In this document: one piece after another, positions 15,801 through 21,800 of the stretch
How the letters are laid out: every line of letters starts with the position of its first letter
How positions within the stretch are numbered: the first letter of the stretch is position 1
Assembly: GCF_016026235.1 (NCBI RefSeq)
Contig: NZ_CP065613.1
Direction: 5' to 3' (one strand)
DNA length: 64,000 bases
DNA from: Escherichia coli
Lineage (GTDB): Bacteria; Pseudomonadota; Gammaproteobacteria; Enterobacterales; Enterobacteriaceae
Made by a program: the position numbers

Positions 15801-18800
15801 GAAAACGTATCCATACCCGGGCCATTCACAGCATTGATACCGACATTAAGCTCAATCGCGCATTGTGGGTGATGGCAGAAACGATGCTGGAGAGCCTGCG
15901 CTGATGCCGTTTCCCTGAGTGAGGGAATCATTCAGCTTTCGTTCCTGAAAAACACACATTTATTTGTTATTTAAGGAGTTATCTCATGAAAAGCGTTTCT
16001 CAGAATACCCCCACAATTTATTCAGCTACAACACCAGAGAATAATCCGCCTCAGTTTGTTGCCAGCCTCGTCCCTGATGAACAGCGCATCAGCTTCTGGC
16101 CGCAGCACTTTGGCCTCATTCCACAGTGGGTGACCCTGGAGCCCCGTGTCTTCGGCTGGATGGACCGTCTGTGCGAAGACTACTGCGGTGGTATCTGGAA
16201 TCTGTACACCCTGAACAACGGCGGGGCATTTATGGCACCCGAACCGGATGACGATGATGACGAAACATGGGTACTGTTCAATGCCATGAACGGTAACCGC
16301 GCTGAAATGAGCCCGGAAGCCGCCGGTATTGCCGCCTGTCTGATGACGTACAGTCATCATGCCTGTCGTATGGAGAATTATGCCATGACGGTCCATTATT
16401 ACCGGTTGCGGGATTACGCCCTGCAGCATCCGGAATGCAGCGCCATTATGCGCATCATCGACTGAATGGAGAGAAGCACAATGCAACAACTTTCCTTTCT
16501 GCCCGGAGAGATGACGCCCGGCGAGCGCAGCCTCATTCAACGGGCCCTGAAAACCCTGGACCGCCATCTTCATGAACCCGGCGTGGCCTTCACCTCCACC
16601 CGGGCGGCACGGGAATGGCTGATTCTGAACATGGCGGGACTGGAGCGTGAAGAGTTCCGGGTGCTGTATCTGAACAACCAGAATCAGCTGATTGCCGGTG
16701 AAACCCTCTTCACCGGCACCATCAACCGCACGGAAGTCCATCCCCGGGAAGTGATTAAACGCGCCCTGTACCACAATGCCGCTGCCGTGGTACTGGCACA
16801 CAATCACCCGTCCGGTGAAGTCACACCCAGTAAGGCAGACCGGCTTATCACCGAACGTCTGGTACAGGCACTGGGCCTGGTGGATATCCGGGTGCCGGAC
16901 CATCTGATAGTCGGTGGCAACCAGGTTTTCTCCTTTGCCGAACATGGTCTGCTTTAACCCGTCACAACCACATCACACCTGTTTTCACTTTTATCTTCTG
17001 TCTTCAGAGGTATCCCATTATGAAAATTATCACCCGTGGTGAAGCCATGCGTATTCACCAACAACATCCGACATCCCGTCTTTTTCCGTTCTGTACCGGC
17101 AAATACCGCTGGCACGGCAGTGCTGAAGCGTATACCGGTCGTGAAGTGCAGGATATTCCCGGTGTGCTGGCCGTGTTTGCAGAACGCCGTAAGGACAGTT
17201 TTGGTCCGTATGTCCGGCTGATGAGCGTCACCCTGAACTGATGTTCCGTCACCCGGAAAACGAGTACGACTGGCTGAGCTCAGACGCCGCTGTGGATGAG
17301 GTCCTGCTCATCAACGAATACACCTTTACCGAAGCCGGTCTGCGCGCCGGCTGACCCGTCATCGTTAAACTATCATTCACCGATTTTCTGTGAGGATTTT
17401 ATCGTGTCAGACACACTTTCCGGGACAACGCATCCCGATGACAATGACGACCATCCCTGGTGGGGACTACCCTGCACAGTGACGCCCTGTTTCGGCGCCC
17501 GTCTGGTGCAGGAGGGTAACCGGTTGCATTACCTTGCCGACCGTGCCGGTATCAGAGGCCGGTTCAGAGATGCGGATGCGTACCCTCTGGACCAGGCCTT
17601 TCCGCTGCTGATGAAACAACTGAAATTAATGCTCACCAGTGGTGAACTGAATCCCCGCCATCAGCATACCGTGACACTGTATGCGAAGGGGCTGACCTGT
17701 GAAGCCGACACCCTCGGCTCCTGTGGTTACGTTTATCTGGCTGTTTATCCGACACCTGAAACGAAAAAGTAAACCACCAGAATAACCTTCTGCTCCGGCC
17801 TGGTGTTTTCACCACGCCACTGTCCCATTTTTTATCTCTGCATATCAGGAAAATCTTCAGTATGAAAACATTACCCGACACGCATGTACGGGAGGTATCG
17901 TGCTGCCCGTCTCTCGTCACCATCTGGCAGACACTGCTCACCCGACTGCTGGACCAGCACTACGGCCTTACGCTGAATGACACACCGTTCGCTGATGAAC
18001 GTGTGATTGAACAGCATATTGAGGCAGGCATTTCACTGTGTGACGCGGTGAACTTTCTCGTTGTAAAATACGCGCTGGTACGTACCGACCAGTCGGGATT
18101 CAGCGCCTGTACCCACTCTCAGTTAATAAACAGCATCGATATCCTCCGAGCTCGCCGGGCAACAGGCCTGATGACCCGCGACAATTACAGAACGGTAAAT
18201 AACATTACCCTGGGGAAGCATCCGGAGGCGAAACGATGAAACTGGCCCTGACGCTGGAAGCCGACAGCGTTAACGTGCAGGCGCTGAACATGGGGCGCAT
18301 TGTCGTTGACGTCGATGGTGTTAATCTCGCTGAACTGATTAACAAGGTCGCTGAAAACGGTGATTCACTCCGCGTGGTGGATGAACGTGACTCTACCGAA
18401 ACACCGGCAACTTATGCCAGCCCTCACCAGTTGCTGTAAGACAATGCAGTGATACAGGGTATAGTGCCATTAACCACAGAAACAGCACTGTTGTCCTGTA
18501 TTAAGCAGGCAAGAGAAGATGTCCTTACCCTGCGCCATCTGCAGCTTCTGCACCAGAACCAGTGAATCTCACTCAACAGGCTTCATTTCCCCTGACGCCA
18601 GCCTGAATACAGCTGGCGTTTTCATTTATAAACAGAAAGGAAAACCGATAATAATGGAATGGACGCCCCTACCATGAAGCAACGGTAGGATATTACTGAT
18701 AAACCTTCCAGTGGAGGTGCGTTATGGCCGTTTTAACGATTAGCATTGACCTGACAAAAAATGAATTCCAAATCCACGGTCTGGGTAGGAACAGAAAAAT

Positions 18801-21800
18801 CTAAGCTCAGAAAACGGATTAAACGTTCCCTGATGCCCGTATTCTTCGCGAATATGTCTTCCTGTCGGATTGGGATGGAGGTCTGCGCCGGAGCGCGTCA
18901 TTAGTGAGAATGCTGTCTACTTAGGGGCATAATGTCAGACTAATGCCCGCGATTTGTAAAGCCATATGTGAAAACAAACAAGAATGATATGGCTGCTGCC
19001 GAGGCCATCTGTGAAGCCGTTACCCGACCTAATATGCGGTTTGTCAGCATCAAGACGCCTGAGCAGTAGTCATTACTGTCTTTTCATCGTGCCCAAACGG
19101 GATTTGTTAAATCAAGGACTGCGCAGATAAACCAGATCAGAGGATTACTGGCTGAATTTGGCATCGTTCTCCCGCCCGACATTGTAGCATTCAGTCGTCA
19201 TGTCCCTGCCCTGCTTGAAGACGCGGAAAACTGTTTAACAATGCCGTTCAGACAGCTGTCGTCCTATCTCTAATGAAAATGTGTAACAACTGAGCGTACA
19301 CATTGAAACCATAGAAGCCGTGAGCAACGAACACGTCGGGAACGACGAACTGTGCAGGAAAATTGCCACCATTTCGGGGATTGCTATTCTTACCACCACT
19401 GCAATTGTCAGCACCGGGTAGTATCGGCTTCAAAAACCGGCGTCAGCTTGCTGCATGGCTTGGACTGGTTCCCCGACAGTGCTTCAGCGTAGGTAAAAAC
19501 ACGCTGGGGTCTATCAGTAAACAGGACGATGTCTATATCAGAACGCTACTGTTCCATGGTGCGAAGACAGTGTCAAACGCCAGAAAGGGCAGACAGGTCC
19601 AGGAAAGTTGGCTGGGCAGACCAGTCTCGCGGCGGAATAAAAATGTTGCCACCGTAGCGCTGAACAACAAAAATGCCAGAGTGCTCTGGGTATTGCTAAC
19701 CAACGATAAAGAGATTTCACCAGAAGAAGTGATGGTAGCTGCATATATGTAAATGAAACTACTTCTGTCTGTTGAAAAATAAAACCAACCTACTGATTGC
19801 TAAGGATAAACAAGTATTAAAGGCCAGACTGATAAGACCGCGACTAAGTGAACCTGTATCTGACATTGCATAGCTTCGCTAATGTGTCAATCATGATTAG
19901 GACTAAATCTGTGAATTCCTTTAGGAAGCACGGACACAGGCCAATCTGAGTCCATATGTATGATTGGAATCTTACACAGATGACTTTTTGACACGGGGAC
20001 TTGGCAAACAGGGGCGACCATGTATGTCAGATATGACAATCTCACTTCCGAAAGAAGTCAACGGGCACGTTATCTGTTCAACCAGAATCCGACACATTCT
20101 GGCTATACGAAAGAGCATACTTATGCAAATCTATATGCTTTTCCGGCAACAAGCAGGAATCTCAGCGCTGAGGCAGGAATTAGAGGTAAAAACGCCCTAC
20201 CGGGCCATGAATCACCCGGTCATTGGAGTAGTAACCAAAGCAGATTTAGCCAGCATGGAACACATATCTTTGGTGAAATGTTGGTTACGGGAAGCTGGAG
20301 CGCACAACGTGTTAGTAACCAGTGCGGTTAATAACAATGGAGTTACAGAACTTTTTGCCTTGCTGCATACAGAAGAAGGCTGTTGCTAATTTCGATAGGT
20401 TCTCAGATGAGAATGATGACGGTGATACACAGATAAGAATCAATGAGCAATGAGGGTTGCCGGGCAACCCTCATTGAATAAAACAGGAATTACTTCGCTT
20501 CGCCGTTTTTCATTTCGCCCATAGCTTTCAGCTTTTTGGAGATATCGCGGCGTTCTTTGGAGAGCTCGGCATTTTTGATGATGTAATCGTCAACGCGATC
20601 TTCATAGTCACCTTTCATGCTGGCGATGATGCCCTGGATTGCTTCAACGCTCATCCCGGGCTTGATGTAATCGCTCAGGTTGTCCAGCAACAGGACGCGC
20701 TTCTGGTTGTCACGGATCTTTTTCTCAACGTCCTGAATTTCACGTTGCAGTTTGTTCTTACGACGGAACAGACGAACAAATTCCAGTACGTCCTGGAATG
20801 AAGGCTTGGTAGTTTCCATTTTTATACCCCTGATAATGTGAGAGTCGGATTCGTTTAAGCAACCGCTATTCGTTAGGGCCAACATTACTCATAGCTGCCG
20901 CAGATGACAATGCTTTTATCCCTTTTCACTATCATACCCTTTATCCTTGCTGAATCGAAGCAGCAGCAAGATGATTCTGAAGTTCAGGAATTATTTGCGC
21001 AAGGCCCGGCAAATCAGACTCGATAGCAACTCAAGCTGATGTGCCGTTTCCATGTTCAGCCACACATAACCATAGATTGGTGTTTCCACAACCTTCAGGT
21101 CATGGTGGTTATTCAGCAACTGACGCAGCTCTTCCACAGCATCGTTCAATTTTTCCGTATTGGCAAAAACCGGCTGCGGATTACCTTCGTACAGCGCATG
21201 AACAAGGCTCAGCAGTATTTGCTGCATCATGTGCTGGGTATCACGAAGTTTTTGCGCGTTCAATAACACGAAATGGCTGGGGCGCGTGGCCCAGTATGCA
21301 TTGATTTGCAACTCCAGCATACAAACCAGATTGCGGTTAATGGTCTGGATACCTTCATATATCGATTTTGGAATACGAGTTTCTTTGCTGGCGGGCGCAA
21401 TCAGCCCACGCATTTTCACGGCATCGGTCAGGAGTTTTTGTAGATGGCTTTCCAGACGTGGGCGTTCGAGTAAGTTCGGTGAGAATGCAGATTGATAAAC
21501 CCGATTATACTCGGTCAGACTTTTCGCCAGTTGAATGCGCCAGTGGATGAACGCCCGTTGTGGCCAGATACCGGTAAACAACATTGCCAGTAAAGAGCCG
21601 AGGATCACATCGCCGCTTCGCCATAACGCCGTATCAATTTCACCTGTCGGGGAACCCACAACAATTGCCAGCGTCACCCCAATCAATAATCCTTGATACG
21701 GTTTCTTGCCCAGCGCCAGCCAACCGCAAAGAAACATAGCCGCCGCGCACCAGACTAACATCAGCGGTAACGAAATTAACTCCAGTTGCAGAGCGATAAG

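Follow-up and report, generated by a model that had tools for sequence, protein, structure and literature searches.

What occupies the space between the last genes of a CP4-44-type island and tmaR (yeeX) on the Escherichia coli chromosome, and through which events did it arise? In a stretch of 64,000 nucleotides of contig NZ_CP065613.1 (the window hereafter), a sequence-only reading had described positions 18450-20400 as decayed IS110-family and EutP-like fragments next to yeeX. The decay of the IS110-family sequence was borne out by our analysis and the resemblance to the EutP family is real, but the description of the EutP part did not hold. We propose that the region is a layered scar, composed of the insertion of an insertion sequence (IS) at the ATG of a DUF4942 gene, its decay and a DUF4942::pduV recombination, with no likely present function, a reading to which we give a probability of about 85%. 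The scar itself is an ordinary, previously annotated right end of a CP4-44-type island in the E. coli chromosome, and the locus is already known as the yoeD/yoeF region of K-12.

The right end of the island and its insertion sequence

The genes of the window were named after the RefSeq annotation of a 99.9% identical locus in strain 39EVA. On this basis, and on that of the annotation of paralogous islands, the right arm comprises DUF932, antirestriction, JAB (yeeS), DUF987 (yeeT), the YeeU antitoxin, the CbtA toxin, DUF5983, DUF957 and DUF4942, which is the gene order of the CP4-44-type islands (P4-like integrative elements carrying CbtA/CbeA). The DUF5983_N match has E=4.5e-29, and DUF957 and DUF4942 are found in the window as remnants. 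The features of the region are the following:

18449-18565, plus strand: remnant of the island DUF957 gene, a 38-codon ORF that has lost ~85 bp from its interior when compared with the 65-codon gene of related islands
18595-18651, plus strand: island intergenic sequence upstream of DUF4942, aligning with the DUF957-DUF4942 intergenic region of M19 (L010) and 2014C-3097 (L011)
18652-20024, plus strand: complete-length IS1111-group (IS110 family) insertion sequence of 1,373 bp, dead, whose flanks are contiguous in related islands
18659-18670, plus strand: left sub-terminal inverted repeat ATGGACGCCCCT, after a 7-bp terminal extension, TAATGGA
18724-19752, plus strand: transposase pseudogene (DEDD/RuvC-like domain and PF02371 domain), matched by NF033542 over its full length
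19795-19925, plus strand: conserved 3' non-coding block from an alignment of eight elements, presumed seekRNA (bridge-RNA-like) gene with a degraded structure here
19857-19867, plus strand: putative top-strand guide TATCTGACATT, with 11/11 positions complementary, in the window, to the insertion site AATGTCAGATA
19886-19895, plus strand: presumed bottom-strand guide region GTCAATCATG, partially matching the left half of the target
20010-20021, plus strand: right sub-terminal inverted repeat AGGGGCGACCAT, followed by a 3-bp extension, GTA
20024-20211, plus strand: 5' fragment of the island DUF4942 gene (codons 1 to ~62), by BLASTP against the M19 protein
20024-20389, plus strand: 121-codon ORF (RefSeq WP_001282181.1), a chimera of DUF4942 codons 1-62 and the last 60 codons of pduV
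20207-20389, plus strand: 3' remnant of pduV, core chromosome (last 60 codons and stop), by alignment with PduV of strain 8178
20490-20819, minus strand: tmaR (yeeX), the first intact core gene, from the RefSeq annotation of the 39EVA locus

The region as first delimited additionally takes in the DUF957 remnant, which appears in RefSeq at 18473-18565 as 'DUF957 domain-containing protein, missing N-terminus'. In blastn comparisons with L010 and L011, window segments 18200-18490 and 18483-18652 match stretches located 85 bp apart in L010. The intergenic sequence that follows reads as a GC-rich hairpin (ACGCCAGC/GCTGGCGT, 18595-18619), a T run and the ribosome-binding region of DUF4942 (AAAGGAAAACCGATA); the hairpin is absent from the listing of a terminator scan.

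The IS lies at the start codon (ATG) of the island DUF4942 gene, and what had been taken for a fragment is in fact full-length, retaining its two ends, its sub-terminal inverted repeats and the 3' non-coding RNA region. Its ends, AATGGAATGG... and ...GGCGACCATGT, placed with an uncertainty of 1-2 bp because AT stands on both sides, are those of intact relatives found in Salmonella enterica (P0002/L012), Providencia stuartii (P0005/L017-L022), Photorhabdus (P0003/L023) and metagenomes (P0001/L016). These relatives share 68-76% amino-acid identity with the stitched translation of the transposase and 72-84% nucleotide identity across the element, and their 3' RNA block is also as in the window.

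The architecture is that of the IS1111 family as defined by Siddiquee et al. 2024 (PMC11187229), of which ISEc11, ISKpn4 and ISPa11 are examples with a seekRNA. The transposase would have some 344 residues with DEDD and PF02371 domains, and the 12-bp repeats, complementary at 11 of their 12 positions, together with the 7-bp left and 3-bp right extensions, agree with the geometry of the group (11-13 bp repeats). Window copy and intact relatives share a layout of ~71-73 bp, the coding sequence and then 271 bp, with the long non-coding region lying downstream of the gene for the transposase, as in the IS1111 group (~71 bp upstream, 271 bp downstream, in the window). The flanks rejoin as CCGATAATGTCAGAT without target-site duplication, also as in the group, when compared with 'empty sites' in paralogous islands located elsewhere (78-86% identity), which do not represent a true pre-insertion allele. 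Moreover, when the ends are joined in silico, the TTGGCA at 20001-20006, a would-be -35 box, comes to lie 16 nt from a TATAAT, forming a putative circle-junction promoter; promoters assembled in this way have been described for IS1111 elements (PMC11187229). The window copy differs from the members of the family in being dead and in having a bottom-strand guide that matches only partly, and its properties are known from sequence alone.

The stitched translation of 18724-19752 confirmed the assignment to the IS110 family, reaching 250.7 bits against NCBIfam NF033542 (IS110 family RNA-guided transposase; cut-off 140; positions 2-342 of 343) and matching PF01548 (E=6.9e-9) and PF02371 (E=2.8e-14), as expected for a DEDD transposase, here in a broken reading frame. 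The multiple stops and frameshifts announced for this gene are also there: alignment with L016, the closest of the intact genes (344 codons, 84% nucleotide identity) and our reference for the lesions, revealed six frameshifting indels (+2, -1, -1, -2, +1, -5), none of them divisible by three, and three premature stops (TAG 18922, TAG 19067, TAA 19284), whereas in the conserved G..P....SG motif the SSGG of the intact gene has become FSVG. RefSeq flags the gene as 'frameshifted; internal stop', and it is decayed beyond repair.

The putative guide and its target

The 3' non-coding block shows 89% mean column identity among the eight elements, which include one from Vibrio with a transposase that shares 55% identity with the stitched translation of the window; in Rfam, no family was matched by it. 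In the consensus fold, with compensatory changes at 11 pairs, two guide stretches flank a hairpin within an internal loop, and 13 of 76 pairs are broken in the window as against 0-2 in close intact relatives. Published IS1111-type seekRNAs are encoded in the 3' non-coding region, with the top-strand match located 5' of the bottom-strand match and both overlapping at the insertion point (PMC11187229), and the putative RNA of the window element would follow the same order, with the same overlap.

A putative seekRNA-type guide is retained in the dead IS, and it is complementary to the site that the IS occupies, the DUF4942 ATG. The base at 19867 that provides the eleventh match is a private change of the lineage of the window, other E. 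coli copies having a G there, which gives an ancestral match of 10/11. The intact relatives keep the guide TATTTAACATG (CATTTAACATG in the Vibrio element), inserting at ...TAT^GTTAAAT... with 8-10/11 matches at the same offset, and a guide-target match at this offset was found in 12 of the 13 insertions scored. In contrast, the guide of the E. coli copy is TATCTGACAT(G/T), and its insertion is at GATAAT^GTCAGAT, whereas relatives from four hosts are inserted at ...ATTAT^GTTAAAT...; from the relatives to E. coli, the top-strand guide differs at the positions where the targets differ. For the bottom-strand guide, we counted by hand six of eight matches to CGATAATG, no better than the usual guide of the family would give, while the corresponding stretch of the relatives (CCATTATG/TCATTATG) matches left flanks ...ATTAT|G. 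The A at 19889 is missing from two of the other E. coli copies (L002 and L009).

These observations incline us, with some reserve, towards a natural retargeting, in which two guide bases changed, a single insertion followed at the start codon of the island gene (GATAAT^GTCAGAT), and the element was then frozen. The IS1111-type lineage to which it belongs targets ...ATTAT^GTTAAAT... in Salmonella, Providencia and metagenomes, and probably also in Photorhabdus and Vibrio, where the guide is the same or nearly so. Retargeting comes down to just two substitutions, because the usual top-strand guide would already match the E. coli site at 8/11, within the range of natural Providencia insertions, and the bottom-strand guide reaches only 6/8. 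An element with the usual guide could then have landed off target at the DUF4942 start, the two guide differences appearing later, by chance, during decay. Natural Providencia insertions do tolerate 8-9/11 matches, and the 3' region of the IS has suffered many later substitutions, including the private change at 19867 that raised the match by chance. However, both ancestral differences sit at the two internal mismatches of the usual guide, and both are the complementary base, a coincidence with a chance of ~1 in 1,000 or below by a rough estimate that assumes ~12% divergence per site; likewise, by our own calculation, a contiguous 10-nt complement between the 271-nt region and a 28-nt target would be expected ~0.005 times by chance. 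We regard off-target landing as unlikely and keep retargeting as the preferred explanation.

The island/core junction and the chimeric ORF

WP_001282181.1 is called by RefSeq an intact 'EutP/PduV family microcompartment system protein'. When aligned to the intact PduV of strain 8178, only its last 60 residues show resemblance: 57 of 60 (aligned at 20204-20383) coincide with PduV residues 87-146 (95%, E=4e-41), in a single frame with zero stops or frameshifts. The multiple stops and frameshifts formerly attributed to the EutP/PduV-like sequence are not there, and a frameshift pair occurs only in the DUF4942-derived half. The ORF matches PF10662 at profile positions 86-142 of 143 only, and scores 41 bits against TIGR02528 (cut-off 138.35), for which the intact PduV of strain 8178 attains 184 bits at positions 1-142. 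No similarity to the PduV N-terminus was detected upstream of the remnant in any frame. Like PduV in its final residues and in its position next to tmaR, the window ORF differs in the loss of residues 1-86, P-loop included, and in its fusion to unrelated DUF4942 sequence; a full-length GTPase-like domain with P-loop is absent, and we consider the ORF to carry what is left of a family member without belonging to the family itself.

The upstream half aligns with the DUF4942 protein of island M19 (BLASTP, 55% identity over 67 residues, E=3e-17), and DNA alignment with related islands reveals a 6-bp deletion plus a compensating -1/-2 frameshift pair. The M19 protein matches PF13708, a domain that begins at residue 87; the window ORF gives no match, its ~62 remaining N-terminal codons preceding the domain. 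Both halves share an ATGAA microhomology at 20207-20211, and as read from these alignments this is the actual island/core junction, located inside the 121-codon ORF and not at the edge of the fragments as previously thought. The pduV remnant is core DNA, since it adjoins tmaR in island-free genomes such as ATCC 8739 (where it is a pseudogene) and is the end of a complete propanediol-utilisation (pdu) operon, of which pduV is the last gene, in others, such as the pdu-positive strain 8178, where the whole pduV adjoins tmaR. The right edge of the island was correctly located beside yeeX, but the EutP/PduV piece is a core-side vestige of the pdu operon, not island DNA.

It is in our opinion improbable that the transposase-like and EutP/PduV-like sequences are both decayed fragments with multiple stops and frameshifts that together make up a decayed island edge on the right. 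Heavy decay of the transposase gene, absence of the N-terminal two thirds from the ORF labelled EutP/PduV and the frameshift pair of its upstream half with respect to its true homologue, DUF4942, would fit such a scenario, but the IS is complete in length, and the pduV-derived codons are in frame, 95% identical to intact PduV, unaccompanied by further PduV-like sequence in any frame and present beside tmaR without the island. Even less credible is that the ORF is a functional gene encoding a new chimeric protein under selection. It is open, called an intact CDS by RefSeq and at least 99% conserved across several hundred genomes, a conservation explained by recent common descent; against function, the P-loop and switch region of the EutP/PduV family are missing in their entirety, the native ribosome-binding site has been split from the ORF by the IS, other lineages are truncated differently (60 codons in K-12, a pseudogene in ATCC 8739), and, of the four nucleotide differences between the 180-bp remnant and intact pduV, three are non-synonymous by reading of the alignment.

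Among 5,426 complete E. coli genomes, at least part of a 1,951-bp query is present in 5,416, island-free genomes matching the pduV 3' remnant only, and at least 80% of region 18450-20400 in 532. The IS body occurs in 772 genomes, with 98-99.9% identity in the matches sampled, as a median of one copy per genome and never on plasmids; no annotated intact copy of the transposase was found among the sampled matches. An intact pduU-pduV segment was found in 644 genomes, with the pdu operon abutting tmaR where checked, and several different pduV truncation endpoints exist within the species. Errors of sequencing or assembly in an element of the IS110 family that would otherwise be intact and possibly active are a general possibility, to which only the existence of intact 344-codon relatives in other Enterobacterales can be added. 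They are refuted by three other, independent complete genomes of E. coli, where all six indels are again present together with two of the three stops; the single-copy, plasmid-free distribution and the 'frameshifted; internal stop' flag in the RefSeq records of other genomes speak against them as well. In a base-by-base comparison, 39EVA (L001), L002 and L009 have zero indel differences from the window within the transposase gene, and all carry stops 18922 and 19067, stop 19284 being shared by 39EVA alone among the three; error correction yields no intact ORF.

A proposed layered history

The right end of CP4-44 in K-12 (yeeW, the yoeD transposase pseudogene, the EutP/PduV-like ORF yoeF and yeeX/tmaR) shares with the window the locus and the DUF4942::pduV junction, matching 18439-18823 and 20136-20412 with 97-99% identity. 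It differs in that a 159-bp IS66 C-terminal fragment takes the place of window positions 18824-20135, which hold most of the IS and 112 bp from the start of the DUF4942 fragment, and in that its ORF has 60 codons instead of 121. The window carries the older, fuller allele. In the literature, yoeF is listed among the uncharacterised genes of the CP4-44 region (PMC11551758).

Our proposed history starts with the IS1111-group element that sits exactly at the ATG of DUF4942, at the right end of the island. Guide-target complementarity suggests that its own 3'-encoded seekRNA directed it there, after a top-strand guide altered at two positions (TATTTAACATG to TATCTGACATG) came to match GTCAGAT and not GTTAAAT. 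The element then decayed by six frameshifts, three stops, loss of the SG motif and breakage of 13 of its 76 predicted RNA pairs, persisting as a single, vertically inherited copy. Illegitimate recombination at the 5-bp ATGAA probably joined DUF4942 codon ~62 to pduV codon 87/88, with loss, in one or more deletion events, of the remaining right end of the island and of the pdu operon otherwise located between cobU and tmaR, leaving the 121-codon chimeric ORF without P-loop that pipelines label 'EutP/PduV family'. Later, in the K-12 lineage, an IS66-family-associated event would have swapped 18824-20135 for the 159-bp IS66 fragment, resulting in the shorter allele of the yoeD/yoeF locus.

The locus has little weight for biology at large, but three modest uses can be drawn from it. 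First, it corrects an annotation habit: the RefSeq 'EutP/PduV family' ORF, and with it the K-12 CP4-44 gene yoeF, is a chimera, whose family-defining part is debris of the core-chromosome pdu operon and not prophage cargo. Second, the ATGAA at 20207-20211 offers a marker at base-pair level for tracing the replacement of the pdu operon by the island between cobU and tmaR in E. coli lineages. Third, the guide-target complementarity of an RNA-guided IS can be read long after the death of the element, which can aid in delimiting further decayed IS110/IS1111 copies and in recognising their targets. If the retargeting is true, guide and target would be readable side by side in hundreds of genomes, providing a small natural data point on the drift of seekRNA guides and on the tolerance to mismatches in the bottom-strand guide.

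The right edge of the island

The window is Escherichia coli chromosome. The locus forms the right end of a CP4-44-type island, and its anatomy can be described with high confidence. Features of the window are listed below.

9194-11194: ORF, 5' part of an Ag43/Cah autotransporter gene (NF033177 positions 1-634 of 948)
11252-12001, minus strand: IstB of an IS21-family element that appears to interrupt Ag43/Cah
12013-13554, minus strand: IstA of the same element
13722-14702: ORF of 326 codons after the IS21-family element, presumably the Ag43 C-terminus
18236-18565: region of DUF5983 and DUF957
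18652-20024: dead IS1111-group (IS110 family) insertion sequence
18724-19752: its transposase pseudogene
19795-19925: its 3' non-coding block, with the presumed seekRNA
20024-20389: chimeric ORF of 121 codons

A sequence-only reading had recognized IS110-like and EutP/PduV-like sequences at this edge of the island, and both are real and rightly placed. The 1,951 bases of the region are 99.9% identical to those of E. coli 39EVA and other strains, and at such a 99.9% identical locus RefSeq annotates, in this order, a CbtA-family toxin, a truncated, yeeW-like DUF5983 gene, a DUF957 fragment, an 'IS110 family transposase, frameshifted; internal stop' and an 'EutP/PduV family microcompartment system protein', followed on the opposite strand by tmaR (formerly yeeX), yeeA, sbmC and dacD. 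With regard to a tRNA attachment site, tRNA genes are absent from the entire window, and a promoter and terminator scan of 18400-20520 gave counts near those of shuffled sequence.

Within the island, DUF5983 is cut down to its N-terminal domain (67 codons versus 163 in the paralogous island of strain 2014C-3097), and DUF957 shows an internal deletion of ~85 bp. The DUF5983 truncation is common to the paralogous island of strain M19, so it is older than the divergence of those islands. The Ag43/Cah gene (9194-14702) also appears to be interrupted. A second IS110-type pseudogene, expected at about 3816-4784 by analogy with 39EVA, was discarded, as the window is non-collinear there and the ORF at 3901-4518 has no transposase match.

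A dead element with both ends

When E. coli genomes were searched with sensitive settings, paralogous islands came to light, with the gene order toxin, DUF5983, DUF957 and DUF4942, in which ~130 bp from the left and ~130 bp from the right of 18566-20203 adjoin under the gene annotated as DUF4942. In the alignment, the window tracks these islands to ...GGAAAACCGATAAT and picks up again at ATGTCAGATATGAC..., where DUF4942 begins with its ATG and first codons, and the DNA inserted in between starts with AATGGAATGGACGCCCC and ends with GGGGCGACCATGT. A true pre-insertion allele was not found, and the empty sites used are those of the paralogous islands. The inserted DNA has sub-terminal inverted repeats of 12 bp (complementary at 11 of 12), terminal extensions of 7 bp on the left and 3 bp on the right, no target duplication and a long non-coding region 3' of the gene, all of them traits by which Siddiquee et al. 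(2024, PMC11187229) define the IS1111 group; by the convention of these authors, the element measures 1,373 bp. The same ends and layout (~72 bp, CDS, 271 bp) occur in intact relatives, namely six identical copies in Providencia stuartii and others from Salmonella enterica, Photorhabdus and metagenomic data. Of the earlier description as a decayed IS110-family fragment, the decay holds (six indels, three stops) but the fragment does not, this being a complete-length element. When its ends are joined in silico, TTGGCA and TATAAT lie 16 nt apart. Circle-junction promoters have been described for such elements (PMC11187229), and from sequence reading only this pair is predicted to be one of that kind.

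The three frames of the transposase gene were read by hand and stitched into a 345-residue translation, which matches NCBIfam NF033542 ('IS110 family RNA-guided transposase') over positions 2-342 of 343 with 250.7 bits (cut-off 140), as well as Pfam PF01548 and PF02371. Among intact genes, the closest is in a metagenomic contig of 1,379 bp (L016): an ORF of 344 codons with 84% DNA identity to the pseudogene. In comparison with this gene we find six indels (+2, -1, -1, -2, +1 and -5, none a multiple of three) and three premature stops, two through CAG to TAG changes at 18922 and 19067 and one through AAA to TAA at 19284; moreover, SSGG has become FSVG in the conserved G..P....SG motif. The idea that correcting sequencing errors might restore an intact transposase ORF has to be abandoned: sequencing error is excluded as the source of the lesions, as all six indels and the stops at 18922 and 19067 are also present in three independent complete genomes (39EVA, L002 and L009). 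The third stop (A to T) is shared with 39EVA only and missing from L002 and L009, so that decay is ongoing.

The IS body was found in 772 of 5,426 complete E. coli genomes, always in the chromosome and with a median of one copy per genome. All best matches show at least 95% identity, with values of 98.3 to 99.9% among those sampled, and a close copy in intact form turned up neither in E. coli genomes nor in the plasmid collection. The element is a single, inherited, dead insertion.

A chimeric ORF joining island and core DNA

The ORF that follows, called by RefSeq an intact 121-residue EutP/PduV family protein, matches the family profile at residues 60-115 only (profile positions 86-142 of 143) and scores 41 bits with TIGR02528, versus a cut-off of 138. 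Its last 60 codons are identical at 57 positions to PduV residues 87-146, and its end coincides exactly with that of the 147-residue PduV of strain 8178. A permissive tblastn search in all six frames of 19700-20400 recovered only residues 87-146 of PduV/EutP, with no trace of residues 1-86, and a +1 frame ORF at 20020-20331 has no Pfam match. For the first ~62 codons the homologue is the N-terminus of DUF4942 (55% identity, E=3e-17); this part has lost 6 bp and contains a -1/-2 pair of frameshifts that compensate each other. The switch of parents takes place at ATGAA (20207-20211), common to both, which is the island/core junction, inside an ORF that public annotation takes as intact. What had been regarded as a frameshifted island gene is instead the undamaged 3' remnant of the core gene pduV.

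This remnant is core DNA. In strain 8178 the space from cobU to tmaR is taken up by a complete pdu operon (pocR, pduF, pduA to pduV), and in the island-free ATCC 8739 by a pduV remnant of slightly greater length and divergence. A match to some portion of the region was obtained in 5,416 of the 5,426 genomes; 60 matching records, sampled at even spacing, comprised ~5 full alleles, 34 of K-12 type and 13-14 with the last ~185-194 bp alone. An intact pduU-pduV segment is kept in 644 of the 5,426, and a further truncation endpoint occurs in others. Beside tmaR, at least four states of pduV can be told apart in E. coli (intact; cut from ~codon 49; ATCC 8739-type with indels; island-junction type from codon 87), as read from L003 5950-6185 (ATCC 8739), L004 5740-6183 (strain 8178) and hits H165-H167, which argues for several independent losses of the operon.

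K-12 has a shorter allele of the same locus in the yoeD/yoeF region, matching 18439-18823 and 20136-20412 with 159 bp in between that include a fragment matching Pfam 'IS66 C-terminal element'. Because K-12 matches on both sides of these 159 bp, the IS insertion and the DUF4942::pduV junction are older than the K-12 deletion. Within the library searched, yoeF came up only in gene lists or lists of uncharacterised genes, with no discussion of its origin. In other strains, IS3/IS629, IS100, IS66 or a group II intron between IS3-family fragments has entered the stretch that separates the dead IS from the chimeric ORF. The 3' end of the dead IS (~19866 to ~20024) is a repeated landing site for mobile elements in different genomes (L007, L008, L009).

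Guide and target of the element

In IS1111-type elements, according to Siddiquee et al. (2024, PMC11187229), the 3' non-coding region codes for a seekRNA, in which a stretch complementary to the top strand of the target comes 5' of one that matches the bottom strand. The window's presumed top-strand guide is TATCTGACATT (19857-19867), and it is fully complementary to AATGTCAGATA, a sequence across the insertion point. At the aligned position, the seven relatives have TATTTAACATG, except that the Vibrio element among them has CATTTAACATG. Of thirteen insertions scored, that of the window and twelve in relatives, twelve show the guide complement matching the reconstructed target at a constant offset; the exception is a contig having just 8 bp of left flank. 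The match in relatives is 8-10 of 11, with targets of the form ...ATTAT^GTTAAAT.... When the E. coli guide is written TATCTGACATG and its target CCGATAATGTCAGATATG, against the usual target ...ATTATGTTAAAT..., the two internal differences from the usual guide coincide exactly with those between GTCAGAT and GTTAAAT. Position 19867 is T in the window and G in the other E. coli copies (39EVA, L002, L009), so the ancestral match was 10/11, and the eleventh matching base is a private coincidence of the window lineage that lengthens the match by chance. Retargeting can thus claim two of the three guide differences, and we are moderately confident that the guide had truly been retargeted by the time of insertion.

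The presumed bottom-strand stretch (19886-19895) matches at just 6 of 8 positions. In this region, an A at 19889 is missing from L002 and L009. A candidate left guide, 'ACTGATAAG' (~19831), was rejected, as it is kept as ACTGGTAAG in relatives regardless of their target and lies 5' of the top-strand guide, against the published IS1111 order. In a consensus fold of eight elements, with compensatory changes at 11 pairs, the guide stretches flank a hairpin inside an internal loop closed by a long stem. The window breaks 13 of 76 predicted pairs, versus 0-2 in close intact relatives, which indicates that the RNA gene has decayed too. Rfam returned no family for 16000-23000 of the window or for two intact relatives at E up to 1.

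Another 11-nt same-sense copy of the insertion site, ATAATGTCAGA, is found in the transposase pseudogene (18929-18939), within a small inverted repeat GGGCAT...ATGCCC and coding for the conserved GHNVRLM motif. Though the target is matched here by an 11-mer for the second time, this probably reflects chance (~0.02 expected, by our estimate). In Providencia stuartii (GCA_016623625.1, GCA_038410255.1, CP008920.1), six identical intact copies occupy different sites, all flanked by ...(A/T)TAT | ATG(T/C)N(A/G)AAT; this points to an IS1111-type element still active today, with the relaxed target ATTAT^GTTAAAT.

Everything found here is of known kinds and already annotated. The only mildly new point is that the putative guide of a dead IS still fits its insertion site, and differs from the guide of its relatives in step with the target.
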